NCBI GenBank assembly: GCA_032128875.1
Contig: JAVLKG010000010.1
Location: 128,001 to 192,000, forward strand
From: Candidatus Melainabacteria bacterium 17Bon1m
GTDB lineage: Bacteria; Cyanobacteriota; Vampirovibrionia; Obscuribacterales; Obscuribacteraceae
DNA: 64,000 nucleotides
Direction: 5' to 3'
Made by a program: the position numbers and the translations under genes. Below the pieces are notes generated by a model. The model saw nothing but the letters and a program-made list of their open reading frames with translations. It did no database searches and had not been told where the DNA came from. Below, piece after piece: positions 32,785 through 64,000 of the stretch; the stretch's first letter is position 1; every line of letters begins with the position of its first letter.

Positions 32785-35139
32785 CTACTTCTTAAGCAGA
32801 GCCTGACGGCGCTTCACTTCAGCTTCTACTTCATCTGGAGTAATGTTGTTGACTTGCATCGGTCCAGCACATATCTCGCGCCAGGGGGCACCAGCCAATG
32901 CCTGACGAACAATAACTTCAAACACTTGAGCGCGGACACCGCTGCCGTAGCTGCCCGGTCCGCCCACAAACGGTGTTGTTGCCGGCGCGCGCGGGATGGC
33001 TTGCTCTGCCTCGATAGCCGGAGGAGGAGGCGGCGGTGGTGGTGGAGGTGGTGGTGGAGGCGGCGGTGGAGCAGGTGTCGGTGCCGGAGCAGGGGCAGGA
33101 GCTGGCGCCGGAGCCGCGGGCTCTGGTGCAGCTGCAATCGGTTGTGTTTCGGCTGCAGGTTGTCCGGCTTGCAAATCTAGTGGTTTTGCCGGCGTCGTAT
33201 TGAATAGATTGCCAGGCGAGGCCGGCTGCGCAGGAGCAACATCGAAGAAGCTGTTGGTGCGCGGTGCTGTGGCTTGCGCCTGAGCCTGTTGGGCTTGAGC
33301 ATGTGCTTCTTCCGCTTTCGCTTTGGTCTCGGTCATTTGCTTTTGGAAATCCGCGACCATCTCTTTAGTCGAATCGCGTAGTTCTTCCAACTGCGCCTTC
33401 AATTGCGCGTTCTCGCTTTCTTTGCGAGACAATTCTTGTTCTTTGGCATCAAGCAATTGGTCGCGCTTGCTAAGGGTTTCGGAAAGCTCATCGTAGCGAG
33501 TATTGAACTCCTCCCAGCGAGAACCCAGGAGTTGTTTTTGCTCTTCCAATTCCTGATCTTTCGCATTCAGGATTTGCTCCATCTCGCGTTCGCGCTGCTC
33601 AAAACGACCAACGAGATCGTCTTGTGACTGGCGCATTTTTTCGAGTTCTGCAAGAACAGCCTCATCTTGAATACCACCACCACTGCCTGCGCTTTCGGCG
33701 CCACGTGAGCGGGGCGGAGCTTCGGCGCCCTGCACGGCATCATAGGCTGCTCTGAAAAGGTCTCCGGAAAGACGCTGACTGCCGAGCAGATCAACCAGTC
33801 GGTGCAACAAGTCGGCAGGGTGATCGGCAGGATAAACAGCCATGTAAGCGGCTTTGAAAGTCCAGGGATCAATTAGCCCGGCAGACAGCTGATCGGCTAG
33901 GCTCATTACGAGCTGTTCGGGACTCATCTTTTCATTGTCAGCCCCGCCTTCGCCCTTCGTCTCAAGGCTCTGCACGAGCTGATCGATGGCAGGAACTAGT
34001 TCTCCAACAGCCTTCATAGGCTCGAGAGCTGCTGATAATGAATCCATAAGACTGTTTAGCGTCAAATTGATTTCAGCAAAAGTCTGATTCTGCATGGTTT
34101 CTGACAAAGAACGCATCGTCTCAGTCTGCTCTCCTGCCAGCTTTTGAATCATTGAAAGATTCATCGCACAGGCTGTCAGACCCTGATCGATGTTGGTAAG
34201 AATTTCATTGGCCAGGTCGGAAACCGGTGCCAGAGACGCGGAAGGTATGGAGCCAATTGAGGAAAGAGAAGGGAAATTCTGCATGGGCGACTGGTCAGGA
34301 ATGCTCGCAGGTGCAGGCGAAGACTTCTCTTCTGATTTGGCTTCTTTCTTTGTAGATGCCGATTCCTTGACAGGTTGTTGCTCAGAAGGCGGCTCCGGCA
34401 GTTTGAGCTCAGGGGCCGGTTCTTCCTTTTTGGCTTCTGGTTTCGCTTCAGGCTCTGGCTTGGGCTCTAGCTTAGCCTCAAGCTTGCTCTCTGCAACCGG
34501 AGCGGGCTCAGGCAACGTCGCTATAGACTCTGCTTGCGGCTCGACCGCTGGAGCCGGTGCTGTGATGGCAGCCGCCAGAGAAGCCGCAGGGCTGGTATTT
34601 ACGGGTTCGGCAGTCGGTAGGATGTCTTGAGGCATGCTTACTGGTATCAAATCGGAGGTGGCTGTGGTGGACGGAACAGTGGGCAAATCTTCCAACCCGA
34701 AGGAATAATTCGGCGTCGAGTCTTTCGCGCCGACGGAGGCAGACGCACCACCTGAAGATTTAGCGCCTTTCCCGGCTTTAGGCACAAGCGAATCAAGGGT
34801 AGAGAGCGGTGAAGACGGCGGAGGTGCTACAGGAGCAGGGGCCGGGGCGCCAGAAGCTGGAACACCGTTAGTATCATCGTTGCCGGCAGAATGCCCGTCG
34901 CCATTTGTGCTTACGGGAGCTTGACCATTGGGTTCGGTAGGCATTTGAGCAGAAGACGTTGTGGATGGAGCCGGGTCTAGAGCGGTGACGGAATAGGGGT
35001 CGGGCGGCGATGCCGATTTTGACAGCGACCCTCTCAAGCGTGCGCGACGTGCCGAAAGGGACGAACCTTCTTCGTTCGCCTTGCCGGTCGCCGCATTGTC
35101 ATACGGGCCTACTGCGCTTCCCTTGTCCTCAGGACTCAT
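32785..35139 (-). CDS. Pro-rich disordered / coiled-coil hypothetical protein
   Basis: 784 aa: P/A/S-rich N-terminus, helical core, long E/Q/K coiled coil, 17-Pro tract, short helical C-terminus; AGGA RBS. Confidence 0.85.
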   Translation of the reverse strand: MSPEDKGSAVGPYDNAATGKANEEGSSLSARRARLRGSLSKSASPPDPYSVTALDPAPSTTSSAQMPTEPNGQAPVSTNGDGHSAGNDDTNGVPASGAPAPAPVAPPPSSPLSTLDSLVPKAGKGAKSSGGASASVGAKDSTPNYSFGLEDLPTVPSTTATSDLIPVSMPQDILPTAEPVNTSPAASLAAAITAPAPAVEPQAESIATLPEPAPVAESKLEAKLEPKPEPEAKPEAKKEEPAPELKLPEPPSEQQPVKESASTKKEAKSEEKSSPAPASIPDQSPMQNFPSLSSIGSIPSASLAPVSDLANEILTNIDQGLTACAMNLSMIQKLAGEQTETMRSLSETMQNQTFAEINLTLNSLMDSLSAALEPMKAVGELVPAIDQLVQSLETKGEGGADNEKMSPEQLVMSLADQLSAGLIDPWTFKAAYMAVYPADHPADLLHRLVDLLGSQRLSGDLFRAAYDAVQGAEAPPRSRGAESAGSGGGIQDEAVLAELEKMRQSQDDLVGRFEQREREMEQILNAKDQELEEQKQLLGSRWEEFNTRYDELSETLSKRDQLLDAKEQELSRKESENAQLKAQLEELRDSTKEMVADFQKQMTETKAKAEEAHAQAQQAQAQATAPRTNSFFDVAPAQPASPGNLFNTTPAKPLDLQAGQPAAETQPIAAAPEPAAPAPAPAPAPAPTPAPPPPPPPPPPPPPPPPPAIEAEQAIPRAPATTPFVGGPGSYGSGVRAQVFEVIVRQALAGAPWREICAGPMQVNNITPDEVEAEVKRRQALLKK

Positions 35140-35481
35140 CTAGTTTCCTTTCTCGAGAAAAGTGGCTTAGTCGCGACCACTTCTCTAGCCTTTCCATGCA
35201 CTCTGGGCGTCGATGGCAGGTTTCACGCACCCTACCGAGCCTTGACTAAGTTGCCGAAATACTTAGCTTACTAAGTAATGTACCCTCACCTTACAAACAA
35301 TACTCCAGCGCTACCCCGGAACGCTAAATTAAGCTCCGGACGCGGGTTTGCCTTAAGCGTCAGATAAAGAAATCCGACGATTTAATAATTGACGGTTACT
35401 GGCCGGCTCCCCTGGAAATTCGATCACCTACCACTTCCAGTATATATCCCAAATTGCTCAACTGGCCAAGAAATTTGGCGC

Positions 35482-35510
35482 TTGACAAGGAAGGGTTATA
35501 GACATAAGAT
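35482..35510 (+). promoter_or_regulatory. Sigma70-type promoter of the ATPase operon
   Basis: TTGACA-17 nt-TAAGAT about 135 nt upstream of the 1490-aa ORF. Confidence 0.7.
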
Positions 35511-35644
35511 CACGACGAAATCAGGTTTTTAAGCTGCCACTTACTATTGCAAACAGCCAAACAAGCGGCGAACGCCAATATCTGTCTTAATTAGCGCTAT
35601 CATCGAGATAGGCGCGGGGTATCTGCCAAAAGGAGCAGTGCCAG

Positions 35645-38600
35645 TTGGAAATCCTTATCTGTCAAACTTGCGGGCTGTTGTTGCGCGGCGAGATTAAAAG
35701 CTGCCAGTCGTGCGGAACTCCTGCGTCAAAATACTCTGCCACTGCATTGCCTATTATGTCTAACACGTCAGCTCCATTGGCAGTGGCAGTGGATCCAGAC
35801 CCGCTTGTTTTGGAAAGAGTCGTCACAGCCCGCCGCCTTGGTACTTATAAACTGAAAGAAGCCAATGGTTACGGCAATGGACATAATGGCGAAAACGGGC
35901 ACGGCAACGGAAATGGCAATGGTAACGGCAACGGCGATCACACGGGCAATGGACACAACGGAGAAAACGGCGGCTCCGTAGCTCCCGCTTCAATGAATCC
36001 TTCCAGCTCTCAGACAGGACTTGCAGCTCTCAGCCTGGGCTTTATGAGTGGCAGAAAGACTCAACCTACAGGTCCGTTATTTGCTGACAATCCATGGGGT
36101 GAAGCAGAAACAGCTGCCCCGCCAACCACACCCGACCCGGCTAGCGCTGGTGTTCCTCCTGCGATCAGTTCTGGTCAGTTCGATCCGATTAGCCAAGCTA
36201 ATCAAAGTGCGCCGGTGCAAGATCCAACAGGTTCCGCACCAGCAGCGCTTCCTAGCGATCCAGCGCAAGGAACATCGCCTTGGCTTACCCCAGCATCGCA
36301 AACTCCATTTTCGCCGAATTTAGATCCATTTTCGTCCGGTGCGCAAGCAGCACAAAACATGTTCCTTGGCACTCCCGATGCCGGTCAAGATACAACACAA
36401 TTTGGCGGCCTCGCACCGGCACCAACACCACTAGGTTTCGATCCAATGTCTCCCATGGGAGGTTTTGATCCAACTTCGCCTGTGGGAGGTGTCGCGCCAA
36501 CCTCTGCTAATGGAGGCTTCGATCCAATGTCTCCCATGGGAGGTTTTGATCCGGCCGCCCCCGTGACCTCGATACCTGAAGCGGCACCGCAGATGATGCC
36601 TGCACCACTGTCAGACAAACCGGTTGATCCATTCGCATTTGACAGCCAGAGCTCGTCTTCCCCTGCAGGAAATGGTTTCTTCGATCCGCCGCAGTCAGCA
36701 ATGAACCCGGATTTGGTAGAAGGTCCTGCCGGGCTCAACAGCGACGTATCGTCAGCATATGCCGTTGCTCCGGTGGCGCACGATCCAGGCTTTGACATAG
36801 TGACACCTATTCAGGCAGTACCTGTTGGCACCACGTCCGGTGACAACACCACTGCTATTGGAACAGCCTTGCAGCCAGTCGCAGAAGCTGCTCCAGGGAA
36901 TGCAGAGTCAGGAGGCGATCCGGTAGCAGGCGCGCCTCAAGCCGACAGCCAAGGCGGTTTTGGAGCTGGACAAACAGCAGCAATCGCAGCCGCCGCAGCT
37001 ATTGCCGGAGCTGCTGCAGGTGCCGCCGTCACCAACGCAATCCACAACCGAGCAGCTAATACGGTCGGAGGCGATTTCTTCGACACAGGCGCACCAGCCA
37101 CTCGCAACGATGACAATGCATCGGTGGGTTCAACTTCGACAACATCTGCAGATCCAATAGGTAGTTCGAGTTCCATGGATCCGGCAGATTCAGTTGGCGA
37201 AGAAGCAGCATTCGACCCGTTTGCACCTGCTGCATCAAAACCGGCGACCGGTTTTCCAACCGGTCCTGCTGACGATTTTTTCAGCGCTGCTCCCATTGGT
37301 AGACCAAAACGCGACGACGGCAGCGTAGACGATAACAATGATTCAGCTGATGCTTTCAACTTCGATTCCGGAAGAAAAACGCGAAATGACGACAATGGTT
37401 TTCCGGACGAAAGTAAAAATCGCGGCAGAAGAGATGAGTCATCTAAGATAGGCGACTCTGATGATGGTCGTCCAAAAATCGCTCGTCCACGCGGTTTTGC
37501 ACCAAACAAAGACAACAAAGATGCCAGCAAATCACAAGAGAAAGAAGATAAAACTGAGAAGGCCGACAAGGCCGAAAACCAAGATGATGATTTCTTCGCC
37601 GGAAGAAAGAACAAGAAAAATTCCGATGATGACCTAGATGATGAAGATTCTAAAAAGGAAACACCACCACCCAGAAAATCTTTTTCGGGCGGCTCTTCAA
37701 CTATAAAAAGACCTGGCGCGAAGAAAAGAGAAGTCGTCAAAGAGAAATCGAAAAAGGGCAAAAACAAGGACGAAGACAACGACGATCTCGATGACGATGA
37801 GAATCTGCCGTTCTTGGAGCGCGAAATTAGCCTCGGCGGCATGACTGTCAGCAACAAGTCGGCAATAATCCTTGGCACCATATGCGCCTTCATGACAGTG
37901 GTCGTGTTCAACACTTTCTGCACATTCTGCACATACCTTGCCGGCTCAATGCCCAAGAATGGCGCCGCTCAGGGTGGATTGCTGGGCGGTCTGGGTGGAC
38001 AAAAAGCCGTAGACATCTCCGGCATTTACAACGTCTACTACAAGACGCCGATGGAGAAGAACGGCAACTCCTTTAAAATGCAGCTCGGTCAACAAGGAAC
38101 TCAAATCTACGGACGCGGTGAAGATGTCGGTGGCCCCTGGATTTTGCAGGGCAACCTAGTGGCGCCGAATGGCATCGTCTTTAGAAAGTTCTATTTGAGA
38201 GACGGCAAACCTTTCGGCAAAGGGATCGAATATAAAGGTATGGTTGGCGTCACTGAAATAGGCCGCCCATACATGCAAGGTCAGCTTGCCTACGAAACCA
38301 AAATGGGTAAATTCTGGCGAGCGACAATTGCGCAAGTCACAGGCAATTGGAGAGCTGTTCAAACAGTGTCAGGCGCGGTCTTGGCAAATAGCGGACAGGC
38401 ACCACCGCCAATGCCAACCGTTGCTAGCTCACCAATGAGTCCGATGGGCGGAATGGGTGGCGGAAACAATCCGCTTGCCCTGTTGCAACCGAACGACACG
38501 CACAATCGCGGCGACATGTCGGCATTCTTCCTCAAGGTTGCATTCGGGTTAATCGGTATTGGTGTGTTGCTTGCGATGGGCGCGTTGTTCATCTTCGGAC

Positions 38601-40117
38601 CATCAGGCAAATTGAATATCATGGCGAAGCAAGAATACATTCCTTCGCAGTACAAAGCTCAGCACAATAAGATGATGCGCGAATGGTCCAAGCCCTATAA
38701 GAAAGGCGCCATGCCGCTCGGCACGCGTGTTGAGTGGAGATTCTGGAAGCCCTGGGTGCCCAGAGTTATGGCGATGCCGCCTGAGTCGCGAACCAACAAC
38801 CCACACATGATCGTGATGGGCGGCTCAGACAAAGGTAAGTCGCGTTTGCTGGCAAACATGATTTGCCACGATATCGAATCAAATGATCGCGCCGTCGTTG
38901 TAATAGACTCCGACGGAGAGCTCATCGATCTGGTCACAAACTGGACGGCTGCGCATGTAAAAGGCAAAGAATTAGCCAAGAGAATTGTCATTGTAGACCC
39001 GACCTATCGCGGCGGCTCAATGTCCTACAACCCGCTCGAACCGCTGGAAGACGTCAATTTCATCGACGCTGCTTCTGCCATTGTCCACGGTTTCAAAGCC
39101 ATTTACACCGAACCACCAGGCTCTCAAAGTCAGTGGAACCAACAAACTGCAAACATTTTGAGAAACGCAGCCATCTTGCTGATGGCTAACAATAAGACCC
39201 TTATCGACTTGCCAACACTTCTGCAAGACAACGATTTTAGAGACATCCTTTTAGAAGGCATTGAGAAGAAGAAGAAAGAACGCACCGAGTATTCGACTCT
39301 CATCGAAACATGGGGTCAATACAAACGATTGGCAAGAACAGATCAGTGGATCAACTGGGTAGAACCGATTCTCAACAGAGTCACGCCAATGCTCAGCGAT
39401 CCGCGCATCAGACCAATTCTCACCAAGCCGGTCGGCGACCTGCGACTGAAAGATTTGATCACAAGCAAGCAAGTGTTACTGGTCAGAATTCCTCAAGGAC
39501 AACTCGACCAGAACGCCAATCTTTTGGGCTCGCTACTTGTCACTGGTCTCAAGCAAGCGGCTTTAGGCTTGTCAGTTCACGACGAAAGCAAGCAACAACC
39601 ATGCGCTCTCTACCTCGATGAAATGAACAACTTCATTGAAAAAGAAACCATCGAAGCGCTGACGCAAGAAACCGACAAGTTCAAGATTGGCTTTGTCGGC
39701 TGCTGCAAGACGCTACAGCATTTACCGGAGGACTTCAGGAACCAAATCATCATCAACGTCGGCACGGTCTGCGCATTCGCCCTGGCGAAGAAGGACGGAG
39801 ACTTGCTTGGTCCGCAGATGTTCCGCGTTGACGGCAGAAAGGTAAAACACAGAACAATTCAAAACTTCTTCAACCAGGTCAACACCTCGCCTCAGTTCGA
39901 GCTAATTTCCGACGAAGAAAAGCTCAATATCGACAGAGTCGTAGGTCAAGAGACACGAGACTTCTTCTGCTACAGGGTAGGGACGGTCGCCGGCACATTC
40001 AGCCTGAAGACCCACGAGTTTGCAGACCCACCCAAGGCGAAAATAAAATCGAAGCTCATCGAGATGATGCATACCGGCTCTGGATCCAGCACCAACAAGA
40101 AACCGGACGTCGCCTAA
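35645..40117 (+). CDS. Membrane-anchored VirD4/TraD(TrwB)-like P-loop protein with N-terminal Zn ribbon and long disordered region
   Basis: CQTCG..CQSCG, about 700 aa low complexity, two TM helices, then HMIVMGGSDKGKS (Walker A), VVVIDSDGE, YNPLE, LYLDEMNNF (Walker B). Confidence 0.8.
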   Translation: MEILICQTCGLLLRGEIKSCQSCGTPASKYSATALPIMSNTSAPLAVAVDPDPLVLERVVTARRLGTYKLKEANGYGNGHNGENGHGNGNGNGNGNGDHTGNGHNGENGGSVAPASMNPSSSQTGLAALSLGFMSGRKTQPTGPLFADNPWGEAETAAPPTTPDPASAGVPPAISSGQFDPISQANQSAPVQDPTGSAPAALPSDPAQGTSPWLTPASQTPFSPNLDPFSSGAQAAQNMFLGTPDAGQDTTQFGGLAPAPTPLGFDPMSPMGGFDPTSPVGGVAPTSANGGFDPMSPMGGFDPAAPVTSIPEAAPQMMPAPLSDKPVDPFAFDSQSSSSPAGNGFFDPPQSAMNPDLVEGPAGLNSDVSSAYAVAPVAHDPGFDIVTPIQAVPVGTTSGDNTTAIGTALQPVAEAAPGNAESGGDPVAGAPQADSQGGFGAGQTAAIAAAAAIAGAAAGAAVTNAIHNRAANTVGGDFFDTGAPATRNDDNASVGSTSTTSADPIGSSSSMDPADSVGEEAAFDPFAPAASKPATGFPTGPADDFFSAAPIGRPKRDDGSVDDNNDSADAFNFDSGRKTRNDDNGFPDESKNRGRRDESSKIGDSDDGRPKIARPRGFAPNKDNKDASKSQEKEDKTEKADKAENQDDDFFAGRKNKKNSDDDLDDEDSKKETPPPRKSFSGGSSTIKRPGAKKREVVKEKSKKGKNKDEDNDDLDDDENLPFLEREISLGGMTVSNKSAIILGTICAFMTVVVFNTFCTFCTYLAGSMPKNGAAQGGLLGGLGGQKAVDISGIYNVYYKTPMEKNGNSFKMQLGQQGTQIYGRGEDVGGPWILQGNLVAPNGIVFRKFYLRDGKPFGKGIEYKGMVGVTEIGRPYMQGQLAYETKMGKFWRATIAQVTGNWRAVQTVSGAVLANSGQAPPPMPTVASSPMSPMGGMGGGNNPLALLQPNDTHNRGDMSAFFLKVAFGLIGIGVLLAMGALFIFGPSGKLNIMAKQEYIPSQYKAQHNKMMREWSKPYKKGAMPLGTRVEWRFWKPWVPRVMAMPPESRTNNPHMIVMGGSDKGKSRLLANMICHDIESNDRAVVVIDSDGELIDLVTNWTAAHVKGKELAKRIVIVDPTYRGGSMSYNPLEPLEDVNFIDAASAIVHGFKAIYTEPPGSQSQWNQQTANILRNAAILLMANNKTLIDLPTLLQDNDFRDILLEGIEKKKKERTEYSTLIETWGQYKRLARTDQWINWVEPILNRVTPMLSDPRIRPILTKPVGDLRLKDLITSKQVLLVRIPQGQLDQNANLLGSLLVTGLKQAALGLSVHDESKQQPCALYLDEMNNFIEKETIEALTQETDKFKIGFVGCCKTLQHLPEDFRNQIIINVGTVCAFALAKKDGDLLGPQMFRVDGRKVKHRTIQNFFNQVNTSPQFELISDEEKLNIDRVVGQETRDFFCYRVGTVAGTFSLKTHEFADPPKAKIKSKLIEMMHTGSGSSTNKKPDVA

Positions 40118-40327
40118 TAAGCTTTCGTGTCGAGCGCCTGGAGCATCTTGAAAGCGCCAGTACTTCCTATAAGTACTAAATTTCGACCTTTCAGGGCATG
40201 AATCAAATAAGCGGAAATCTGTCTTCGCGGCTCTTTCAGCCGTAGAAAGGCTACTTAAATGAGTATAATCAGGGTCAGCAGCTTTGCCGCTCTGACTGAT
40301 AAGTAAGGGAAACCCAGGACAAGCATC

Positions 40328-43300: not shown

Positions 43301-43519
43301 GACACTCCGGCATCTGACTCTGCAGCTTGGTTCTGCCGGTTGCTGACAGAACGTCTGATTGGTCAAGGTGATGTTGACCTCGCCTACTGTCTTGCTGTTC
43401 ACCTGATCAAAGACCAGCAGCTTTCCACAGACGCTCAGTTGGTACTGCTACACAAAGTTCGCACCGCCCTCGAAAACTTCCAGAACGAGGCCGAGGCGGA
43501 GCAGCAGCAAAATGCCTGA
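40328..43519 (+). CDS. HerA/FtsK-superfamily (DUF87-like) ATPase
   Basis: KHTIVCGVTGGGKT, EPAKSEY, LNPFE, LIEEAHRL, AEIRSYG, IIADQIP, KNTNLKIMHR. Confidence 0.88.
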   Translation: MDEGPRNIWEEKIADLRRYDLDALELDPVSGADVVSWPVPGLTFVRVDGILRSWDIEGEKQQAKQQPQQNQDPNQGPKRMYLMEDALTGMHSQKAYLAFLVLGDKTGVQYYMGASIANPGDPGDGGDSSTISFNTLKSILHSVYNGVDTYKDPFTLDQMKAMVAPLATHTGIITGIPALKSTAGDTMESEQIERLASGLQGKDFGMMVLAAPIPKAYVTKEEFHVVDQIQRAQENEDPEKKRRIKYYLELQDAYLKHIQLGTAIGSWQVGTYFFAPDRSVFARLQSLIQATYVDETSRPTPLRTHEIKGLREHVAQFGLVKNQRSGESFQTLLGYRFLTPLNSRLLSAYIHLPKREMPGFRIKRSAEFSLANIPPKDPVRIIAIGNILDRGVDTGNLYYIDVDAMQKHTIVCGVTGGGKTNTCFYLLGQLWKFKIPFMVCEPAKSEYRHMMLMSETFKGVGQAFSLGDETVSPFRLNPFEIMKGVKVQTHLDALKSVFNASFEMYSPMPQVLEKALNSIYSVRGWDLVQNKCRRLPPGVNLGDPDCPPEIYPTMKDLYEIIEPITESFGYSERIGPDVQAALKARIGSLLIGGKGQMLNTRRSIPMSTLFGKPTVIELKMVSEDSEKSFLMGMIMVFLYEYREALGPHDNLQHVMLIEEAHRLLKNVPTAQSGESANPAGKAVEFFTNMLAEIRSYGQGFIIADQIPNKLAPEALKNTNLKIMHRIVAVDDRDSMGGAMNLDDIQKRHVTALGQGRAIVYAEKMEQPYHLAIMFDKTKEVPPPETPEESDQIVRDAMKGLDIVATFDRHLGCKFCLHRCDSNILDTAQMVADDTLFRQVYNRYLLSTLKDLTQLVHFRAQIIHEIQRVIGGRARSGNITGITWCALTQATERYFERKGEENYWFYDQVKEQHLRWLNLLRPAFQPTEVNRRLDIAVLRQWRDDFLELHKRDQGPLPTCGPCTSKCLYRFEVSEVVRDPKIKFDFNSSINRKDTPASDSAAWFCRLLTERLIGQGDVDLAYCLAVHLIKDQQLSTDAQLVLLHKVRTALENFQNEAEAEQQQNA

Positions 43520-44075: not shown

Positions 44076-44081
44076 AGCGTC

Positions 44082-44169
44082 GGGGTGCGTTGCACGCGCC
44101 CATTTTGCAGGGTTGACTCCACGCGCCGACCGTTTCTACTTATGCAGTCGACTCATGGCGTCGACCCTA
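44082..44169. repeat. Cluster of REP-like palindromes between convergent genes
   Basis: GGGGTGCGTTGCACGCGCCC, GGTTGACTCCACGCGCCGACC, GTCGACTCATGGCGTCGACCCTA. Confidence 0.6.
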
Positions 44170-44178
44170 ACATTAATC

Positions 44179-56142: not shown

Positions 56143-56404
56143 TCGCCAGTGAACGTCCGGTGAAGTGGAGAATCTGGATTACTTGGTAAGGGACTCGTGA
56201 TAGCCTGGAAGTGGCTCAATGCTGACTTCTGCAACCGCCGCCGGGCTGATGAGGTCCTTTTGGCTGCGCGTTGTCAATGGTACTCCTATGCAGTAATTAT
56301 TACTGTCGTCTAATTTACATTTGCACCAAAAACACCGTCTTCCAACGCCAAATCAGGCATCGAAAGTGCTTAAATTTTGCTAATATGAAAAATGATTAAA
56401 CCGA

Positions 56405-59400
56405 TTAATCGATTGGTTTACCTAGAAATCGACTGCAATAACCCTTCCAATTGGAATTCAGGTCATTGACGGCAAGTTCACGCGCCGCTTGAGGCGGCAA
56501 ATCGATTCGTACCGAGCGTTTGCGCCCATCCTGAGTGAACTCATTGCGCATGGATACATCATCATAAATTTCATACGAAACAACCGGCTCCCAGCCGTTT
56601 CCTCGGGATACTTCCAGTTGGCAAACGACACCCTGCCCATCGCACTTAACAATGCGGCATTCGTCATTTAGCTGGTCCATGGTGTGATTGCCTGTCGTGA
56701 ATCGAGTCGGCGCATCCTCGTCGGCAACAGGTGGCTGTACGAAGACTGTTTTCGCATCTTCGAGCGAGGTGCTTACACCGCCTGATTGCGCGTGATGAGC
56801 TTGAACGGGTTGCGCTTGAACCGGTTGCGCTTGAACCGGCTGTGCTTGCTGCAACCGCACGGTATCTTGGTACGAACGATCTTGAGCCACTTCACGCGCA
56901 GCGGGTCGCACATTAGTGTCACCGCCTTCGCCGCCATCCCCACCGCAAACAGGTGCAAAAGCCGCCCCACAAGCGGGACAAATTGTTGCGCTGTTAACGG
57001 TCATACGACCACAGCCTTCGCATAGCTTGGTAGCAACTTCAGTTACTACCCCAGCAGTTCTGACACCACCAGTAGTGAGCACCGCATTTGGTGCACCAGC
57101 CAACTGAGCACGGTAGCCTTCCACATCAACATTGCTAGGTATCATGAGAATCGCACCGCGAGTCAAGGTTGCAACTGGAGCCCCCTTGCTATCGGTCTCT
57201 GTGGATATTCCGTTTACCTCTGCAAGCAGCTTCCAGAGATTGACGTCTTGCAATGCCGGGTGCTTCATCGCGACAGATTTGAGGCTGTCGCCCAGTCTAG
57301 CTATATACTTGATCCTGCCGTCAGCAGGCTTTGCCCGGCCTATCGGCCCCAGCAAGCTTTCGATATTGGCTCTCTTCTTCTGCGCGGCTTCCATAGCTGA
57401 TGCCGCCAGGGCCGCAGTCACTTCCGCCGATGTCGCTGGTTGAGAGCCAGGAACGGTTGCAGGTCCACCAGTTAGTCCGGGTACGACTGTCGCAGCTCCG
57501 CCGGTTGCAGGTGCACCGGTCGCGGGTCCGCCTGATCCTGTCTTGTTGCCTGACCAACCTGCGCCAAAGCGGGCAATAAGCTCTTCGTCGGCAGTCATTT
57601 TCTTGTCCGGCGTACCAGATGCTCTGGCGCCCGCCACACCGCCTTTCCTGAACTCTTCAATTTCAGTGGTCGACGGCAACCAGATAATCATCTTCGGCTT
57701 GAGATCCGGCACTTGTTTGCCGTTCTCGACACGCAGCAGGATGACTTCTTTGTTGATCTCGTAAATGAGCGGAGAAAGTTTGACATCGCGCAACTGAGTT
57801 GTGGCAATGCTTTGCAGAGTATCCTTTTCGCGCACGATGTAGCGACGGCGTTTTTCCCTGTCGCGCTGTTTGTCCTTCTCGTCTGACTTTTCCTTTTCCT
57901 TCTGCTCCTGCTCCAATTGCTTGCGTTTCTTCTCCGCCAGCGCAGCGAGCATAAGAGCATCGAGACGAGCCTTTTCTTCGCGCTTATGTTGGTCTTCCTT
58001 CTCGCGCTTCTCTTTCTCTTCTTCTTCCTTTTTCTCGCGCTTGGCTTTCTCGTCGAGGAATTTCTCGTCTTTTCTATCTAAGGGATTGAGAGCATCCGGG
58101 CGATCAGATTTTGCCTCAACTGTCTTGGAGCCAGGCAATGCGATGTCCTGTTGTCTCTGCGCTTGGATGGCATCAGGCTTGGCGATATTTGCTTCGGGCT
58201 TGCCTTCAGCTTTGACCAGGTCCGGTTTGACTTCAGGGCGATTAGAAATATCCATGCGTGCAGCGTTTTGCGCGGCCGCTTGAGCGGCATCCATGCGCGC
58301 CTGCGGTCCTTCAAAACGAGCGCCAGGACCAATTTCACGCCCAGCTTGCTGACCCTCCTGACCAGTTGGTCTGGTCGCCTGCTGAACGGGATCTTTTCCG
58401 GCTCTGAGATCGAGCATCTGACGAATCGCCATCTCTTGTGCCGGGGTGATTCTTGCCACCAGCGCCATTGCGTCTGCTCTCTCGTTCATCTGACGATTGA
58501 TGCCGTTTTGCTCCATTGCTGCAAGGCGTTCGCCTGGACGAGTAGGGTCGAGCTTTCTACCAAGAATGTCTTCGATCCTGAGTGCATTCTTGGAGCCGTC
58601 TACACCAAGCTGTTTATTGACGTCGCCCAGCATTTTGGTCAGGTCACTGAGCAAGCGCTGAGTATCTTTCGCGCTCAAAGTTTGATTGTTGATCGCATCC
58701 TTACTTCCCTTCATGAAGTCGTACAGGCGCTCCGTCGGGTTTTTCATACCATCGGACAAGCCCATCAGCTCTTTGACTCGAGCAGGATTGAACTTGCCGT
58801 CAGTCGAGCCCTCCGTCAAGAATTTGGTCAGGCGATCTGCTTTAGAAGGATCAAGGCCTTTAAAGATATCTTCTACTCTTTGGCCTTTAGTCATCTCGAG
58901 GCGCTTCATCGCGTCGGAAAGAAACTCGCGTGTCGCCTTGTCATTCATGTCAAAACCAGGAATTCCTTTCTGGTTCTGTCCACCTTTTATTGCATCGAGA
59001 GCGCGACTGGCTTGGTCGCCACCATCCTGACGCCCACGCATAGTGAGGTCACCGCCTCTGCCATCTTTATCGCGCGCCTCGGCCCATTTCTGTTGAAATT
59101 GAGCCAGCATTTCGGGATTGTTTTTGAATTTGTTTTCCCAGTTAGGTGGAAACGGCTGATCTTTGGGTTGACCCTTGAGCTCTTGAAGTTTTGCCCATTC
59201 AGCCTGGCGTTGGCCAATATCGAATCCGGGACGCGCTTCACCAGACTTGAGCCCAGGGGGATTGAATTGTTCGCTGCGCTCAACCATTCCTTTTATAAAG
59301 TCTGGGTTGTTGCGCGGATTGCGATCTCCACCTTCAATTGGATTGTGACGCGGATTGCGATCGCCACCATCTATTGGATTGCCGCCCGGCAATTTGACGT

Positions 59401-60565
59401 CCGCTACTTTGACGTCGGCTGGTTTGAAATCGGGGCCTTTGATATCGCGCACCTGCTCCGGCTTTGGAGTAAAGCGCGCTTGCAATTGCTCAGGATTGAA
59501 AGTCCCGTTATTTTCTCGCAATGCCAGCTTGGTCGAATTTGCGACCAGGCTTGCGCCTTCCGGGAACGCGCTTTGCAGTCCCCGTGCGGCTTCCTGGCGA
59601 ACCTTCGGGTCAACGCCTTTTGCCAACGAATCAGCGTATGTTTGAGCTGCTTGTCTCTGGTTTTCAGTCCACTGAGCTACAGGCGGAACAACAGCTTCAT
59701 TGCGGCGGCCGGGAACTGTATCGCGATCCTTACCTGTTCTTGGATCCGTAAGTGCGGCTGGTTGATCAGTCACGGCAGCAACCTTGCGCTCTGGAACTGC
59801 CGCAACAACAGGTCGTTCTCCGCCAGAAGTCGTTTGAACCGGTGCTTCGAGTCCGTTTGCTTTTCGCTGTTCTCTCCAGAAACTGTCTCTCTGATTTGCC
59901 GGCAACGCAGCAGCCTGTTCTGCGAGTTGTCTATATTGCTGCTGACCGACTTTCTCTCGCAGCTCATTCCTCTCAGAACCAGTGACACGCTTATCCGGCT
60001 GAATCGTTGGTTCGCCTTCAGTACGCTGACGCTTATTGCCTGGTTGAGGATCTGCAGAGCCGTCCGTGACAGTGCGTCGATTGGTAACACCTGCAGGTTG
60101 ATCGACCACGGGATCTGCCGTTCTGCGCCCATTTGTCGAAGTCGGATTATCGACGGTAGCACCGCGTGGCGTAGCCAAATTTACTTCCGGAGGCCGCACA
60201 CCATCTTTCGGTATACCAACCAGTCGAGGCGCCTCACCCTCACGACGCGGAGGGTCGATTCGATACTGTTGACCGTCTGTGGTAAAACCGAAAACCTGGT
60301 TACCCTTTACTACAGTATTGAGCTTGAGCTGCGTTCCGTCAGCCTGAGTGAAAGTCTTTTCAGTCACCTGTCCGGGCGCACGGTCGTTAAGTTGAATAGT
60401 CTTCGGTCGCTCGTCGAGTTGAGCACGAAACTGATCATGAGCCTCAAGAGGCTGCCCACCAGGAGCATCACCACCGGGATTTTGCTCGATTGGAGTTGTA
60501 GGCTTGACCAGCGTATCGACTTTTTCTTCGGCAGGTTGAGTCGTCTGGCGTGGCAACTGATTCAT
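56405..60565 (-). CDS. Large protein with two LysM-like domains, Zn ribbon and conserved C-tail (paralog of the 3987-aa protein C-terminus)
   Basis: 1386 aa; YIVREKDTLQSIA, YIARLGDSLKSVAMKHP, CEGC..CPAC, IDLPPQAARELAVNDLNSNWKGYCSRFL. Confidence 0.88.
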   Translation of the reverse strand: MNQLPRQTTQPAEEKVDTLVKPTTPIEQNPGGDAPGGQPLEAHDQFRAQLDERPKTIQLNDRAPGQVTEKTFTQADGTQLKLNTVVKGNQVFGFTTDGQQYRIDPPRREGEAPRLVGIPKDGVRPPEVNLATPRGATVDNPTSTNGRRTADPVVDQPAGVTNRRTVTDGSADPQPGNKRQRTEGEPTIQPDKRVTGSERNELREKVGQQQYRQLAEQAAALPANQRDSFWREQRKANGLEAPVQTTSGGERPVVAAVPERKVAAVTDQPAALTDPRTGKDRDTVPGRRNEAVVPPVAQWTENQRQAAQTYADSLAKGVDPKVRQEAARGLQSAFPEGASLVANSTKLALRENNGTFNPEQLQARFTPKPEQVRDIKGPDFKPADVKVADVKLPGGNPIDGGDRNPRHNPIEGGDRNPRNNPDFIKGMVERSEQFNPPGLKSGEARPGFDIGQRQAEWAKLQELKGQPKDQPFPPNWENKFKNNPEMLAQFQQKWAEARDKDGRGGDLTMRGRQDGGDQASRALDAIKGGQNQKGIPGFDMNDKATREFLSDAMKRLEMTKGQRVEDIFKGLDPSKADRLTKFLTEGSTDGKFNPARVKELMGLSDGMKNPTERLYDFMKGSKDAINNQTLSAKDTQRLLSDLTKMLGDVNKQLGVDGSKNALRIEDILGRKLDPTRPGERLAAMEQNGINRQMNERADAMALVARITPAQEMAIRQMLDLRAGKDPVQQATRPTGQEGQQAGREIGPGARFEGPQARMDAAQAAAQNAARMDISNRPEVKPDLVKAEGKPEANIAKPDAIQAQRQQDIALPGSKTVEAKSDRPDALNPLDRKDEKFLDEKAKREKKEEEEKEKREKEDQHKREEKARLDALMLAALAEKKRKQLEQEQKEKEKSDEKDKQRDREKRRRYIVREKDTLQSIATTQLRDVKLSPLIYEINKEVILLRVENGKQVPDLKPKMIIWLPSTTEIEEFRKGGVAGARASGTPDKKMTADEELIARFGAGWSGNKTGSGGPATGAPATGGAATVVPGLTGGPATVPGSQPATSAEVTAALAASAMEAAQKKRANIESLLGPIGRAKPADGRIKYIARLGDSLKSVAMKHPALQDVNLWKLLAEVNGISTETDSKGAPVATLTRGAILMIPSNVDVEGYRAQLAGAPNAVLTTGGVRTAGVVTEVATKLCEGCGRMTVNSATICPACGAAFAPVCGGDGGEGGDTNVRPAAREVAQDRSYQDTVRLQQAQPVQAQPVQAQPVQAHHAQSGGVSTSLEDAKTVFVQPPVADEDAPTRFTTGNHTMDQLNDECRIVKCDGQGVVCQLEVSRGNGWEPVVSYEIYDDVSMRNEFTQDGRKRSVRIDLPPQAARELAVNDLNSNWKGYCSRFLGKPID

Positions 60566-60925
60566 TCAGCTTCCCCTTGGCGGAAATGATAAGGAGGTCT
60601 TGGACTCCATCCCTTTGGCTTATATGACTAGCTTAGTAAGTTGGCCTGCGGACGCGTCCGGCAAAAGGCCGGGCGCCTTAATAATAAGTCTGCCTATTTG
60701 GGTTGTCAACAATTCGACACACCCGCCACATTTAATCTTTGCCGGTGTCTAGGGTCGATGCTGTCAAGGATAGATATCAACAAGGCTGGTTCGATTTTCT
60801 AGGCAAGCAATGCACCCAATGAATTTTATGCTCATTGTTGTCGGCTTTTCATCCGACGTTATTGCTCGTTTTCATAACTAGAACCAAAAGACGTTACTCC
60901 AACACCCAGGAAAACGGCAATTAGT

Positions 60926-63900
60926 ATGGATTCTGTCCTTTCAAGCAACACAAATGAGCAAGTAGTCGGCAAAAACGGCCAAGGCTCTCCTGAAAATCCA
61001 GATAAAGAACACGATGGTGACTTCGACGAAAGTCATCAGCGTTTGCTCTTTGGAGGAACGAGCGCGCCCGCTGGCGATGCGCAAAATGAAAGTACAATTG
61101 CCGCAGCACCCAAACCAGGGCAACCAGTATCGCGCGCACGCGAAAGCACAGACGATCTCAATCTTGTTGCAATTTCCGGAATTACAGCAAACGGAAAAGC
61201 AGACGTCAAACCTATTACGCCTACATACGAAGTCAGCCCTTCCAATCCCTTACCGGCCCTGGCAAAGACTGGTGTTGCCACCACTGTCAGTTTGCAAACA
61301 CCAACCACTGATAATGCTGTTCCATCCGGACGCCGCTCGGGCGCCACAGACAAAATTGCCGTTCAACTTACTGAAGATGCGACTCCAAAACCAATTATTT
61401 CTCAGGAAATCAGACTGGACCAATTGGATAAGGATACAAAACACAGAGTTGTCGCCGCCAGCGTCAACAGCTTGTTCGAGCGGCTTGGACAGCCGGTTCC
61501 GACGGGACAAGGCGACGACAATGCAAGACCGATCGTATCTCCTGCCACCGCTTCCAGAAAGGCAAATGGTAGCGGCGACGCTCAAGTGTTCAGCTCAAAT
61601 TCTCCAGCAACAATTGCGTCCGGACAAGCAGAAGCAAGGCTGCCAATCAATCAACCAGTCAGTTCAACCAAAGCCGCTCTGGATAGTTTAATACCAGCAA
61701 AACCAGCCGTAGAAGTGAAAGAAATAAACGCACCGGCGAGTCGTATCACTACTGATGTACGCGCGACCGGCAATGTAATTCAATCACCATTGTCAGAACC
61801 GATTAGCACCACCGCCGGTGCGCGAGTAAAATCCATCGCAGAACCAACAGGTGACAATTGTCCCGTACTGCCAAGGGTAATTGGTAGGCAAATTGTCGAA
61901 AACACAGGTACTCAGCTCCCTCCAGGAACTATTGCCGGAGACCTGGTTGGCGTGAACAGAGCGGCCACCAGCAATCGTGCCTTGATTCCTGACCAGCCGT
62001 TAACTGCTCCTAAATATCCCACACCGGTCGAAACTTCCATCGCACGCGCCAAATCAATCGACACATATGCTGGCGTTCCAACTCCCGCCGTGCCGGATTT
62101 GACAGGACAACGTCCGGCAGGAACAACAACGCCTGAAAAACTGATTGGAGACAACAGACTTCCAGTGGTCAAACCAACAGGCGTGATTAATGAAACTGGC
62201 GTTCTTCCCACAGTGATCAGCGGAAAAGATGGCGCTGTAATAGTACCTAGCCCAGCAGGCGAAAGAGATGTTCGTCGCAATGTGCTAAACATCTTGCCTG
62301 CCGTAACAGAACAAGTTGCCGTACAACTGGCTCCGCAAGTCAAAGCGGGTCTAAGAACCAATGCAGATGGAACACCAGTAAAAGTTGAAGGACCGTTGCC
62401 AATGCCCGTACCGGGTCCTTCCAACAAAATCGAAGCTCCGCAGACGGCACAGCCGGCCGCAAGAGTGGACATTCCGCTGCCCGGAGTAGAAATCAAAGTT
62501 GTCGGCTCGACAGTGACGATTACTGGTCCAAAATCGGAAGTCCAGCCTATTTTGCAAAATCCAGCGACTGCAAAACCTGAAGTCACAGGAAGAGTTCAGG
62601 ACGGGATCAAACCAGCGTCTCCCCTCGAAACCGTCAACCAAACCGTTGGAACTACGGCTGCTCGCGTAATTTTGCAAAATGCCGAACAGCTCTTGCAACC
62701 AAACAACAGCTTGCCGCGCACAGAAATACCGGCCAATGTAGTGCGCAACGGAGACCAGATCAACCCGCCAAGCACGCCTGGTGCTCGCCATGGCGAACTG
62801 CCAACTGGAGTAAAGACACCAGACGGCACAGTGGTCGACAGAACAGGCAAACCAATTGAGCCCGGAGCAACTACCGACAGAACCGGCGCAAAAATCTCCG
62901 ACAATCCTAACGCTACGCCTGGCACTACCAATGGTGCAATACAAGGAACTATCCCTGGAGCCGACAGAGGCTTGCCGACTGACAAATCATTGCCACGAGC
63001 TACTGATCCAACTATTGCAACTGACAAAGGAATTCCGAAAGCAGTTGACGGACGTCCTGGAGATGTCGCTCGCAGTGGAGAGCAAACTGTCCCTGGTGTT
63101 CGCAGTGGTGAGCAGGCTGTACCTGGTGCCCGCAATGGAGAACAAGCTGTTCCCGGTGCTCGCAACGGAGAGCAAACCGCCCCCGGTGCTCGCAATGGAG
63201 AACAAACCGCTCCTGGCGCTCGCAACGGAGAACAAACCACACCTGGCGCTCGCAGCAGCGAATCCACTCGCACCGCTGACGGTACCGTCAAAACTTCCAG
63301 CGAAGCGATGGCTCGCAAAGATGATAGCGCTTTCAAGACAGCCGATGCTATGCCCAAGCCAGTCGAAAGCGGCATGAAGTCCGGCGAATCAAACACCCGT
63401 GTTGTTGAATCGACATCTAAGGTTTCAGAGTCTGGCTCAAAAGTAGTAGCCGATGTACAAGTCAAAGCAAACGGAGAAGCTGTTGCCACTAACAAGCCTA
63501 TCGAACTGGCAGGTAAAGTAGCCAGCGAAATCGCATCCGCTCAAAAAGTTCAGGATGGTCAAGTAAAGTCGGCAGACGTTGTATTGAAAGGCACCGATGT
63601 TGCAGGTCGCAGCATTGAAGCAAACATCAAAGCGCAAGACCTCAGTGCAAACAACGGGCAGCCGATTTTAAACGACAAAAATGTCAGACTTTCAGATGTA
63701 ATCGTCAGAGCGGCTGAGCAAGCGATTATCAAAGGCGCAGAAATCAACCAAACTGCAAAACTTGACTCTAATGTAAGAGTTTCCGAACAAAACGTTCAAA
63801 ACTCGCATCTCGCACAAAACCTGCAAAATCTCCAAAACATTCAGAATGTTCAAAACGTAAATCCAGTAATTGCGAATCAACAGCAAAACAAGAACGACGT

Positions 63901-64000
63901 TGTCCGCAACGATGCAAATGCTCCTAAAGCCACAGACCAGAATCAAATTGTTCAAAATCAACTCGGTCTTCAAAACCAGATCGCGCAAAACAACATCGGA
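60926..64000 (+). CDS. Large low-complexity repeat protein, 3' end outside window (>1025 aa)
   Basis: Not in the ORF track. ATG 60926 gives MDSVLSSNTNEQVVGKNGQGSPENPDKEH...; the same frame was open in every segment I translated and ends ...LGLQNQIAQNNIG at the window edge. Confidence 0.85.
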   Translation, partial: MDSVLSSNTNEQVVGKNGQGSPENPDKEHDGDFDESHQRLLFGGTSAPAGDAQNESTIAAAPKPGQPVSRARESTDDLNLVAISGITANGKADVKPITPTYEVSPSNPLPALAKTGVATTVSLQTPTTDNAVPSGRRSGATDKIAVQLTEDATPKPIISQEIRLDQLDKDTKHRVVAASVNSLFERLGQPVPTGQGDDNARPIVSPATASRKANGSGDAQVFSSNSPATIASGQAEARLPINQPVSSTKAALDSLIPAKPAVEVKEINAPASRITTDVRATGNVIQSPLSEPISTTAGARVKSIAEPTGDNCPVLPRVIGRQIVENTGTQLPPGTIAGDLVGVNRAATSNRALIPDQPLTAPKYPTPVETSIARAKSIDTYAGVPTPAVPDLTGQRPAGTTTPEKLIGDNRLPVVKPTGVINETGVLPTVISGKDGAVIVPSPAGERDVRRNVLNILPAVTEQVAVQLAPQVKAGLRTNADGTPVKVEGPLPMPVPGPSNKIEAPQTAQPAARVDIPLPGVEIKVVGSTVTITGPKSEVQPILQNPATAKPEVTGRVQDGIKPASPLETVNQTVGTTAARVILQNAEQLLQPNNSLPRTEIPANVVRNGDQINPPSTPGARHGELPTGVKTPDGTVVDRTGKPIEPGATTDRTGAKISDNPNATPGTTNGAIQGTIPGADRGLPTDKSLPRATDPTIATDKGIPKAVDGRPGDVARSGEQTVPGVRSGEQAVPGARNGEQAVPGARNGEQTAPGARNGEQTAPGARNGEQTTPGARSSESTRTADGTVKTSSEAMARKDDSAFKTADAMPKPVESGMKSGESNTRVVESTSKVSESGSKVVADVQVKANGEAVATNKPIELAGKVASEIASAQKVQDGQVKSADVVLKGTDVAGRSIEANIKAQDLSANNGQPILNDKNVRLSDVIVRAAEQAIIKGAEINQTAKLDSNVRVSEQNVQNSHLAQNLQNLQNIQNVQNVNPVIANQQQNKNDVVRNDANAPKATDQNQIVQNQLGLQNQIAQNNIG
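63068..63256 (+). repeat. Intragenic 30-bp tandem repeat (ARNGEQxxPG x6)
   Basis: GCTCGCAA(T/C)GGAGA(A/G)CAA...CC(T/C)GG(T/C) units, in frame. Confidence 0.9.

Follow-up and report, generated by a model that had tools for sequence, protein, structure and literature searches.

A conserved VirD4-like and HerA-like ATPase pair beside giant LysM proteins in Obscuribacterales, a possible coupling-and-cargo locus of a type IV secretion-like protein exporter

Genes of the locus and their domains

We analysed a 64,000-nucleotide stretch of DNA from Candidatus Melainabacteria bacterium 17Bon1m (assembly GCA_032128875.1, contig JAVLKG010000010.1, positions 128,001 to 192,000; C10:128001-192000 in our numbering), a member of the order Obscuribacterales whose genome (G000 below) comprises 7.55 Mb in 35 contigs and is 93% complete; this whole stretch is called the window. 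Its second half carries a run of seven genes (Table 1) encoding, in order, a coiled-coil protein (CC784), an ATPase resembling the VirD4 and TraD coupling proteins of type IV secretion systems (T4SS) (TraDl), an ATPase of the HerA clade (HerAl), a small protein of 187 amino acids (p187) and three giant proteins (G1, G2 and G3) that end in a common domain, the C-tail. An original prediction, read from the letters of the window, had described this run as a scaffold-like gene, an ATPase pair with a coupled 187-residue protein, and giants, and all of these genes were confirmed at the places given for them. The surroundings, with rpoA, SecY, map and the S10-spc ribosomal genes at ~4,400-21,100 of the window, the ribosomal superoperon ~12 kb from the locus, selA close by, and a GC content that stays flat at 0.48-0.56 with no compositional break, place the locus in the core chromosome. 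The prediction that the system is chromosomal and non-conjugative agrees with this position and with the order-wide presence of HerAl, found in 98 of 107 Obscuribacterales genomes and in 38 of the 39 high-quality ones among them. It had also stated that relaxase, integrase, VirB core, NurA and Sir2 genes are lacking; this holds for the window, where the 42 upstream open reading frames (ORFs) and the seven cluster proteins gave no match to these families, but not for the genome, which has NurA on contig C2, two relaxase matches on contigs C17 and C27, and the two VirB4-type clusters described below.

Table 1. Features of the locus, in window coordinates (aa, amino acids; nt, nucleotides; TM, transmembrane helix)
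Feature	Position	Strand	Description
selA	29588-31111		
CC784	32785-35139	-	784 aa; disordered, Pro-rich, coiled coil; divergent from TraDl
CC784, C-terminal ~50 aa	32785-32940		
TraDl	35645-40117	+	1490 aa; Zn ribbon, ~700-aa low-complexity linker, TM1, ~190-aa beta-rich loop, TM2, P-loop ATPase
TraDl ATPase domain	38645-40114	+	residues 1001-1490; alignment A4
HerAl	40328-43519	+	1063 aa; HerA-clade ring ATPase with conserved extra N-terminal (~1-380) and C-terminal (~790-1063) regions
HerAl Cys cluster	43199-43222 and ~43388		residues 958-965 and 1021
p187	43512-44075	+	187 aa; ATG overlaps the HerAl stop by 8 nt (translationally coupled)
Two GC-rich hairpins	44083-44102 and 44147-44167 (44083..44167)		spacer between convergent p187 and G1; read from the sequence
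G1	44179-56142	-	3987 aa; YD/RHS-like repeats, coiled coil, ~55 copies of a 10-aa TDPKTG unit, disordered region, two LysM, Zn ribbon, DUF7718-like C-tail
G1 C-terminal cassette	44182-45531	-	LysM1, LysM2, Zn ribbon, C-tail (C-tail proper 44182-44526); alignments A1 and A5
G1 30-nt tandem arrays	48133-49856		encode TDPKTG-type decapeptides
G2	56405-60565	-	1386 aa; cassette of two LysM, Zn ribbon and C-tail (C-tail 56408-56752)
G3	60926..64000, continuing to window-equivalent 65773	+	1615 aa; two LysM and C-tail, no Zn ribbon
G3 30-nt units	63067-63254		

TraDl has the domain plan of a coupling protein. Throughout, signal peptides and transmembrane (TM) segments were judged by hydropathy alone (19-residue window, at least 1.6) rather than by SignalP. 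Behind an N-terminal zinc (Zn) ribbon (CxxC...CxxC) and the linker lie two hydrophobic segments (residues 737-766 and 957-990), followed by a domain that matches TrwB_AAD_bind in Pfam (25.2 bits, cut-off 20.5); this is the order, a TM pair and then a TrwB-type P-loop domain, by which VirD4/TraD coupling proteins are recognized. Walker A (GKS/T) and Walker B (DE), with a stretch of ~250 residues between them, are invariant, and the ATPase domain is 58-72% identical between genera. Orthologues carry precomputed matches to PF10412 and PF02534, and the public annotation of TraDl reads 'type IV secretion system DNA-binding domain-containing protein'; its best NCBIfam match, NF045973 (VirD4-like, CD1115 family; 6.8e-8), is far under the cut-off, and membership in the curated families of type IV coupling proteins (T4CPs) was not reached in NCBIfam (21-32 bits against cut-offs of 250-648). 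Genes of the TraDl type occur in G000 only on contigs C10, C4 and C9, the copy at C4:434991-437606 being 83% identical to TraDl and that at C9:196123-198921 encoding a 932-residue fusion of a Cys-rich N-terminus, a Ser/Thr kinase, TM segments and a distant TraD-like ATPase domain. Four kilobases downstream of the C9 gene lies a gene for a 1164-residue low-complexity protein with a LysM-like end.

HerAl matches DUF87 in Pfam (24.9 bits, cut-off 23.2), and a profile of its family matches the HerA structures 9x1l (5.8e-14), 4d2i (4.9e-12) and 8yho, in each case over the ATPase core only. The HerA equivalogs of NCBIfam score 17-38 bits against cut-offs of 800-970, and PADLOC returned for HerAl only generic HerA-core matches of 40-60 bits, in keeping with the prediction that the ATPases lie outside known defence families. 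The C-terminal region contains an invariant CxxCxxxC motif and a nearly invariant fourth Cys, conserved among 39 family members from many phyla, which could form a Zn or Fe-S site.

HerAl is one member of a large family whose 2703 representative proteins (E<=1e-30) come from bacteria and archaea. Among the 150 matches listed, most are ~1000 amino acids long and can be aligned almost from end to end, with 30-46% identity, and the conserved columns of the family extend into the N- and C-terminal regions; the taxa include Chloroflexota, Actinomycetota, Planctomycetota, Acidobacteriota, Bacillus and Paraburkholderia, the range reaching from Streptomyces to archaea. At loci of this wider family in other phyla (L066-L127; for example L068:8983-13192, L078:3814-7772 and L089:8833-12886), a Zn-ribbon motif was present in the directly upstream gene on the same strand in 14 of 35 cases, as against the directly downstream gene in 1 of 37, and most of the upstream partners combine it with TM segments and a small beta domain. 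Since partners of this kind are usual upstream of the family, TraDl appears to be such a Zn-ribbon membrane protein to which a VirD4-like ATPase has been joined; an hhalign comparison of the TM-loop-TM module of TraDl with the partners' small beta domain gave a probability of 4% and showed no homology. TraDl, p187 and the C-tail were present in none of the wider-family loci examined, and BLAST placed none of the three beside HerAl paralogues or distant homologues. Genes for Zn-ribbon Ser/Thr kinases, FHA, Hsp70-like, dynamin, DO-GTPase2, nuclease, integrase and transposase proteins lie near these HerA-like genes, and PADLOC yielded for eight wider-family members, as for HerAl itself, generic HerA-core matches only, and nothing for six of the partners. 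The literature searched contains no description of the ~1000-residue family, although Iyer et al. (2004), whose subject is the FtsK-HerA superfamily, may mention it; nor is the family described in the Aravind-lab paper on conflict systems.

The giants were originally described as LysM repeat proteins, which does not fit their composition: each has two divergent LysM copies carrying insertions rather than an array, and the repetitive bulk consists of RHS/YD repeats and 10-residue tandem units. G1 matches YD_repeat_2x (28.2 bits, cut-off 15.8), and its orthologues in six other genomes (3539-6360 amino acids) reach 258 bits with RHS_repeat. Cysteines are few: all six of G1 fall within the last 207 residues, none in the first 3780, and the orthologues have 4-9 each. 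The shared C-terminal cassette that had been proposed is present in all three giants, but in G3 without the Zn ribbon. Its last ~100 residues form the C-tail, and among 19 cassettes scanned, LysM was detected in 13 and DUF7718 in 16 (E<=0.01 for both) and a UPF0547 Zn ribbon in nine; the G1 cassette matched all three. LysM (PF01476) scores 22.5 bits on the G1 cassette (cut-off 20.9) and 23.8-30.4 bits on orthologues, with a best value of 5.7e-7 among the 19; DUF7718 (PF24839, cut-off 25 bits) scores 30.3 on G3 and 27.8 on G2, both above the cut-off, and 21.6 on G1, below it. A profile search of the PDB with the C-tail returned nothing (best E 0.64), and the literature searched holds nothing on DUF7718.

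The giants were predicted to lack an evident signal peptide, and indeed no hydrophobic segment occurs in them, at the N-terminus or elsewhere; Pfam, NCBIfam and hydropathy likewise revealed no RHS core, toxin family, PAAR or signal domain. LysM domains, RHS/YD repeats, few cysteines and the lack of a hydrophobic segment are usual in exported, wall-bound proteins. Outside Obscuribacterales, DUF7718 was seen as a rare stand-alone protein of 111-223 amino acids in four of the 200 other Cyanobacteriota examined, as well as in a Thermus control; examples (L144:1483-1818, L146:1183-1842, L148:1198-1869) sit in small gene pairs, one of them overlapping the following ORF of 84 amino acids.

CC784 has no Pfam family, and PADLOC gave weak coiled-coil-type matches to LmuB/JetC over residues 362-630. 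Most of the protein drifts between genera, with the exception of its C-terminal 47-71 residues, which are 83-90% identical. This C-terminal domain recurs after a Zn ribbon in a 252-residue protein (G000:C4:750672-751430), and its ~50 last residues might serve the conserved ATPases as a docking peptide.

Conservation, gene order and the movements of p187

The distribution of the locus was examined in a class sample (49 Obscuribacterales and 151 other Vampirovibrionia) and in the order sample of 107 Obscuribacterales introduced above; the genomes of the order are kin, and presence counts accordingly overstate independence. The C-tail profile is matched in 105 of the 107 genomes (one to six copies each) and, within the class sample, in 48 of 49 Obscuribacterales versus 0 of 151 others; the TraDl ATPase profile behaves in the same way (47 of 49 versus 0 of 151), which bears out the predicted co-occurrence of the ATPases with the C-tail. 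HerAl gave a single, spurious match in 123 genomes of the largest other family in the phylum sample. HerAl of five genera shares 82-86% identity with the window copy, close to the values for RpoA (86-93%) and SecY (72-79%) of the same genomes, while the C-tail, which always ends a long frame (up to 6362 amino acids), is 23-47% identical. By these identities HerAl is under housekeeping-grade constraint and the putative cargo end evolves fast.

Gene order was compared at 19 loci from different genera of one family, f1, within 8 kb on each side of HerAl, with ORFs of the related loci called mechanically. TraDl lies upstream of HerAl in all 19, six of which have an additional second TraDl or a protein of 550-656 amino acids with Zn ribbon, TM and beta domain; HerAl is followed by p187 in 16, and CC784 is present in 14, the other five loci ending short of its position. 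A LysM giant lies downstream in 17 of the 19 loci, convergent in 16, with the C-tail present in 15 of these. G000 has four C-tail genes, three of them at this locus, and in other genera second copies lie 10-20 kb from HerAl. An arrangement that recurs in 19 loci of different genera is not due to chance. Its neighbours recur as well: selA lies near HerAl in 7 of the 19 loci at 45-51% identity (three of the seven being among the five identity-compared genomes), and rpoA lies ~30-55 kb from HerAl in all five genomes checked.

A second family, f40, departs from this pattern. Here selA, CC784 and TraDl stay together, the TraDl-CC784 adjacency being kept, HerAl lies on another contig, and p187 was found in none of three genomes. 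One of these genomes (G302) has three HerAl copies, 58-61% identical to the window copy (L029:8747-16682, L039:4926-15167): two are in tandem and adjoin Ser/Thr kinase genes, and the third follows genes for an ARC6-like IMS protein, an M23 peptidase and a TIG-domain protein on the same strand and converges on an ORF of 2878 amino acids without a Pfam family.

The most informative breaks concern p187, a protein that gave no match in profile searches of Pfam, NCBIfam, PADLOC and the PDB. It is present as a single copy in 84 of the 107 genomes, with 37-57% identity. In genera g159 and g170 it has gone from the ATPase locus; nine relocated loci have usable context, with HerAl or TraDl in none of them, and in five (L133, L134, L135, L139, L142) p187 directly adjoins a gene for a LysM/C-tail protein of 1143-1451 amino acids. 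Within g170, genome G405 (97% complete, 10 contigs) has neither p187 nor any C-tail protein, and its congeners G404 and G406 have both, side by side. This adjacency after relocation, together with the joint loss in G405, argues that p187 belongs with the C-tail proteins and makes it, from its genomic associations, a candidate adaptor or partner of the C-tail domain. Because it is also translationally coupled to HerAl, we read p187 as a bridge from the C-tail proteins to the ATPases, and its linkage to C-tail genes is better evidence than synteny for a connection between ATPases and giants.

VirB4-type clusters and a possible protein exporter

A weak FtsK_SpoIIIE match (24.8 bits) elsewhere in G000 led to a VirB4-family ATPase of 945 amino acids (C3:884682-887516). 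It scores 65.9 bits with P-loop_TraG (cut-off 25.8) and 193.8 bits with VirB4-like CD1110, also matches AAA_10 and TraC_F_IV, and is covered over nearly its full length by TraC and VirB4_CagE. Its cluster (G000:C3:871040-888608, L158) encodes on the same strand a 133-residue protein with two TM segments, a DUF2225 Zn-ribbon protein, a 902-residue protein with six TM segments and a 1772-residue protein with four; a paralogous cluster, likewise with a DUF2225 Zn-ribbon protein, lies at G000:C1:790815-808895, and both VirB4-like genes are flanked by small two-TM and polytopic proteins (902 amino acids with 6 TM; 1688-1772 amino acids with 4-8 TM). The flanking proteins gave no Pfam or NCBIfam match, no VirB6, VirB8, VirB9 or VirB10 homologues were identified, profiles of PF03135 and TrbL had no match in the genome, and neither cluster contains a coupling protein. 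The VirB4-like gene is present in 106 of the 107 Obscuribacterales (71-80% identity between genera) and in all 49 of the class sample; among the 151 other Vampirovibrionia, 14 genomes gave matches, of only 22-26% identity.

The sections of Guglielmini et al. (2014; PMC4027160) drawn on here describe VirB4 as the only ubiquitous T4SS protein, and such an ATPase is found in this genome on contigs C3 and C1, not within the window. The sole FtsK_SpoIIIE match of G000 is the VirB4-like gene, and no true FtsK/SpoIIIE was found; the control genome of Synechococcus elongatus gave no such match either, and the missing match is therefore perhaps not special to the order. The best NCBIfam matches of TraDl and of the VirB4-like protein, CD1115 and CD1110, bear neighbouring CD111x names and are presumably families of one group of conjugative elements. 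With two core VirB4-type clusters elsewhere in the genome, the system is better seen as a T4SS-like variant than as a machine that consists of the two ATPases by themselves.

Our best explanation, held tentatively and at a little short of an even chance, is that the window contains the coupling-and-cargo locus of a dispersed, chromosomal, relaxase-less, T4SS-like protein exporter that defines Obscuribacterales. In this exporter TraDl would be the VirD4-like ATPase, anchored in the inner membrane by its two TM helices, and the HerAl ring would work with it at the cytoplasmic face, perhaps docked through the N-terminal Zn ribbon of TraDl. p187 would bind the DUF7718-type C-tail of the signal-less RHS/YD giants and pass them to the ATPases, TraDl and HerAl would energize transfer, and the VirB4-type clusters of contigs C3 and C1 would provide the channel. 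Once exported, the giants would be held to peptidoglycan by their two LysM domains, with the RHS/YD repeats and the stalk of 10-residue units displayed. Several observations speak for such an exporter: TraDl has the VirD4 plan; the genome has two VirB4 ATPases in clusters that both want a coupling protein; TraDl, HerAl, the C-tail and the VirB4-like protein are each nearly universal in the order, and a search of the 151 other Vampirovibrionia gave no orthologues of TraDl, the C-tail or the VirB4-like protein; the best NCBIfam matches of TraDl and the VirB4-like protein bear neighbouring names; the giants have the make-up usual in exported, wall-bound proteins; the C-tail genes are concentrated at the locus; and p187 is coupled to HerAl yet tracks C-tail genes. 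What the sequences show is which genes and domains are present, how conserved and how widespread they are, their order, the translational coupling and the linkage of p187 to C-tail genes; the contacts between the proteins, the part played by the VirB4-type clusters, export as such and the place where the giants end up are inferred from this pattern.

A number of findings weigh against this exporter. G405 keeps CC784, TraDl and HerAl at normal conservation despite having no p187 or C-tail, which argues that the ATPases are not solely a C-tail exporter; on our reading the invariant core is CC784 with TraDl and HerAl, and it can persist without the C-tail cargo module. Four of the nine relocated p187 genes (L136, L137, L138, L141) have no C-tail gene within 10 kb, and in genus g149 p187 is absent (0 of 3 genomes) and the C-tail matches are weak and distant from the locus. 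In f40 the ATPases are on separate contigs and the C-tail protein on a third. The predicted synteny of ATPases and giants, though kept in f1, must be discounted as weak evidence, since gene order is preserved across the family over the entire region, selA and the ribosomal operon included, and the phyletic match counts as one event because it concerns a single clade. The profile of the TraDl ATPase domain found no solved VirD4/T4CP structure in the PDB at E<=0.01. No outer-membrane component has come to light, and the VirB4-type clusters are tied to the locus only by co-occurrence within one order and by the neighbouring CD1115 and CD1110 names. To our knowledge, HerA-clade ATPases are DNA motors and not protein exporters. 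A Cys4 Zn ribbon such as that of the cassette is unusual in extracytoplasmic proteins, and LysM proteins of the cytoplasm exist (Kbp of E. coli).

A more ambitious combination, in which the HerA-family ATPase, docked by a Zn ribbon to the VirD4-like ATPase and acting with p187, passes RHS-LysM proteins as long as ~6400 residues to the wall as a lineage-defining, housekeeping-grade translocase, and in which the wider family of HerA-like proteins with Zn-ribbon partners (2703 clusters) forms an undescribed class of membrane-associated translocases, seems to us unlikely when taken as a whole. If the exporter is real, it would explain how a poorly known lineage, uncultured and sister to the cyanobacteria, brings giant signal-less proteins to its surface; it would be an example of a T4SS-like machine split over several loci and joined by a third motor, from the HerA clade; and it would give a first functional handle on DUF7718, p187 and a very large uncharacterized HerA-like family. 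Whatever it moves, an apparatus conserved between genera at housekeeping level (HerAl 82-86%, VirB4-like 72-80%) is of importance throughout the order.

Among known systems the closest likeness is to T4SS, which share the two-TM VirD4-like ATPase and VirB4-family ATPases clustered with small TM and polytopic proteins, as far as these are set out in the portions of PMC12102498 and PMC4027160 used here. The portion of PMC12102498 used here reports a lineage-wide, chromosomal, relaxase-less T4SS in Patescibacteria, and the present system resembles that type in particular, being chromosomal and lineage-wide with no relaxase at its loci. The differences are that the TraDl gene lies away from both VirB4 clusters, that its product has a Zn ribbon and a ~700-residue linker and is paired with a 1063-residue HerA-clade ATPase found in no described T4SS, and that the candidate cargo consists of RHS/YD proteins of 1400-6400 amino acids with a folded LysM-Zn ribbon-DUF7718 cassette. 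In DotL-IcmSW, cargo is recognized through its C-terminal region with a small adaptor, an analogy for the candidate cargo here. What is new relative to T4SS is the split architecture, the third ATPase from the HerA clade, the Zn-ribbon theme and the p187/DUF7718 module with its RHS-LysM giants; the main texts of the literature searched contain nothing that ties Obscuribacter to this locus and nothing on a system of HerA, VirD4 and LysM giants.

The type VII secretion system (T7SS), with its EccC/EssC ATPases, offers a membrane-anchored FtsK/HerA-superfamily ATPase with two TM segments, signal-less substrates with small partner proteins, and FHA and kinase-type proteins like those encoded near the wider HerA-like family. 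Unlike EccC/EssC, TraDl and HerAl have one ATPase domain each and no tandem, with FtsK_SpoIIIE at 16.5 bits, below its cut-off; WXG100/LXG had no match in the cluster proteins, and the best families are VirD4/TraD rather than FtsK/SpoIIIE. The giants of Omnitrophota (West-Roberts et al. 2023; 10.1101/2023.11.21.568195), proposed in the available part of that text to act at the cell surface or cell walls, are likewise RHS-like beta proteins of several thousand residues beside a conserved secretion-type locus. According to the same part, however, that locus resembles a type II secretion system or type IV pilus, with gspD/E/F, and its giants have predicted signal peptides and C39/S8 peptidase domains; neither LysM nor HerA appears in it.

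Alternative explanations and other features of the window

The strongest alternative, a serious one that we nevertheless consider somewhat unlikely, is that CC784, TraDl and HerAl form a core cell-cycle or envelope machine, for example a septal DNA translocase or segregation pump, or a device for membrane or peptidoglycan remodelling, with the giants and p187 as inherited neighbours. Known relatives among HerA, FtsK and VirD4 proteins move DNA. The RpoA- and SecY-like conservation of HerAl, the position of the locus within a fully syntenic core region and the survival of the trio in G405 all suit such a motor, and so do the genome's want of a real FtsK and the f40 HerAl gene that follows ARC6-like IMS and M23 peptidase genes on the same strand. 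The latter two points carry less than they might, as the Synechococcus elongatus control also lacks an FtsK_SpoIIIE match and the f40 neighbourhood was seen just once. Pfam and NCBIfam revealed no DNA-binding domain in TraDl or HerAl beyond what the family name implies, and mere inheritance sits poorly with the clustering of C-tail genes at the locus and with a p187 that is coupled to HerAl yet follows C-tail genes when it moves.

A system of biological conflict is a quite improbable alternative to the exporter. It could take the form of a HerA-type defence module, or of an RHS-type toxin with the DUF7718 C-tail as effector, p187 as immunity protein and the ATPases as regulators or exporter. 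Outside the order the ~1000-residue HerA-like family is patchy and occurs on a plasmid or beside the kinase, FHA, Hsp70-like, dynamin, DO-GTPase2, nuclease-domain, integrase and transposase genes noted above, and also beside TnsD. The giants moreover resemble RHS/YD polymorphic toxins, which, in the sections of Zhang et al. (2012; PMC3482391) used here, combine such repeats and peptidoglycan-binding accessory domains with a distinct C-terminal domain and a small gene; here too a small gene adjoins the one for a conserved C-terminal domain, in a manner reminiscent of toxin-immunity pairs, and stand-alone DUF7718 proteins sit in small gene pairs. In Obscuribacterales, however, the locus is core, single-locus and very slowly evolving, PADLOC has nothing specific for HerAl and nothing for its partners, and no NurA, Sir2 or nuclease gene is adjacent. 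The C-tail is conserved and not polymorphic, p187 is single copy against one to six C-tails per genome and usually on the opposite strand (convergent in most loci), no RHS core or toxin family was detected, and the giants have no PAAR, type VI secretion system or signal-peptide trafficking domain.

A HerA-NurA or HerA-Sir2 defence system in particular was considered and dropped: HerAl has no such neighbour, NurA being on contig C2, and its equivalog scores are far below the cut-offs. With the HerA helicases (HerA-NurA, HerA-Sir2, HerA-DUF4297) it shares a RecA-like core with Walker A and B and DUF87, but at 1063 residues it is about twice their length (~500-700), has conserved extra terminal regions and the Cys cluster, adjoins no NurA, Sir2 or DUF4297 gene, and belongs to a family whose usual partner is a Zn-ribbon membrane protein. 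That the VirD4-like and HerA-like genes are remnants of a decayed integrative conjugative element, as source annotations of TraDl as a conjugative DNA-transfer protein and the relaxase matches on C17 and C27 might suggest, is close to refuted and was dropped, given an identical chromosomal site in 19 genera, housekeeping-level conservation in 98 of 107 genomes, flat GC, and a window with no integrase, relaxase or tRNA-flank signature.

Between the ribosomal operon and a SpoU methylase gene, five ORFs on one strand (window 22149-27235; 189, 167, 599, 186 and 448 amino acids) have no Pfam family at E<=1e-5. Three public sequencing runs labelled RNA-Seq (X2-X4) cover window 31000-50900 at flat depth, on both strands and through the spacers, and nearly all of their contigs equal in length those of the same sample's DNA run; these runs look like DNA and are no evidence of transcription. 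The two hairpins between p187 and G1 are, from their sequence, likely terminators. The first of them is a near-identical repeat of a hairpin at 31576-31595, GGGG(C/T)GCGTTGCACGCGCCC, and contigs of the public runs branch at 31569-31603 and 44147-44169, that is, exactly at hairpins, which suggests that the element is repeated around the genome, probably as a terminator or a repetitive extragenic palindromic (REP)-like unit.

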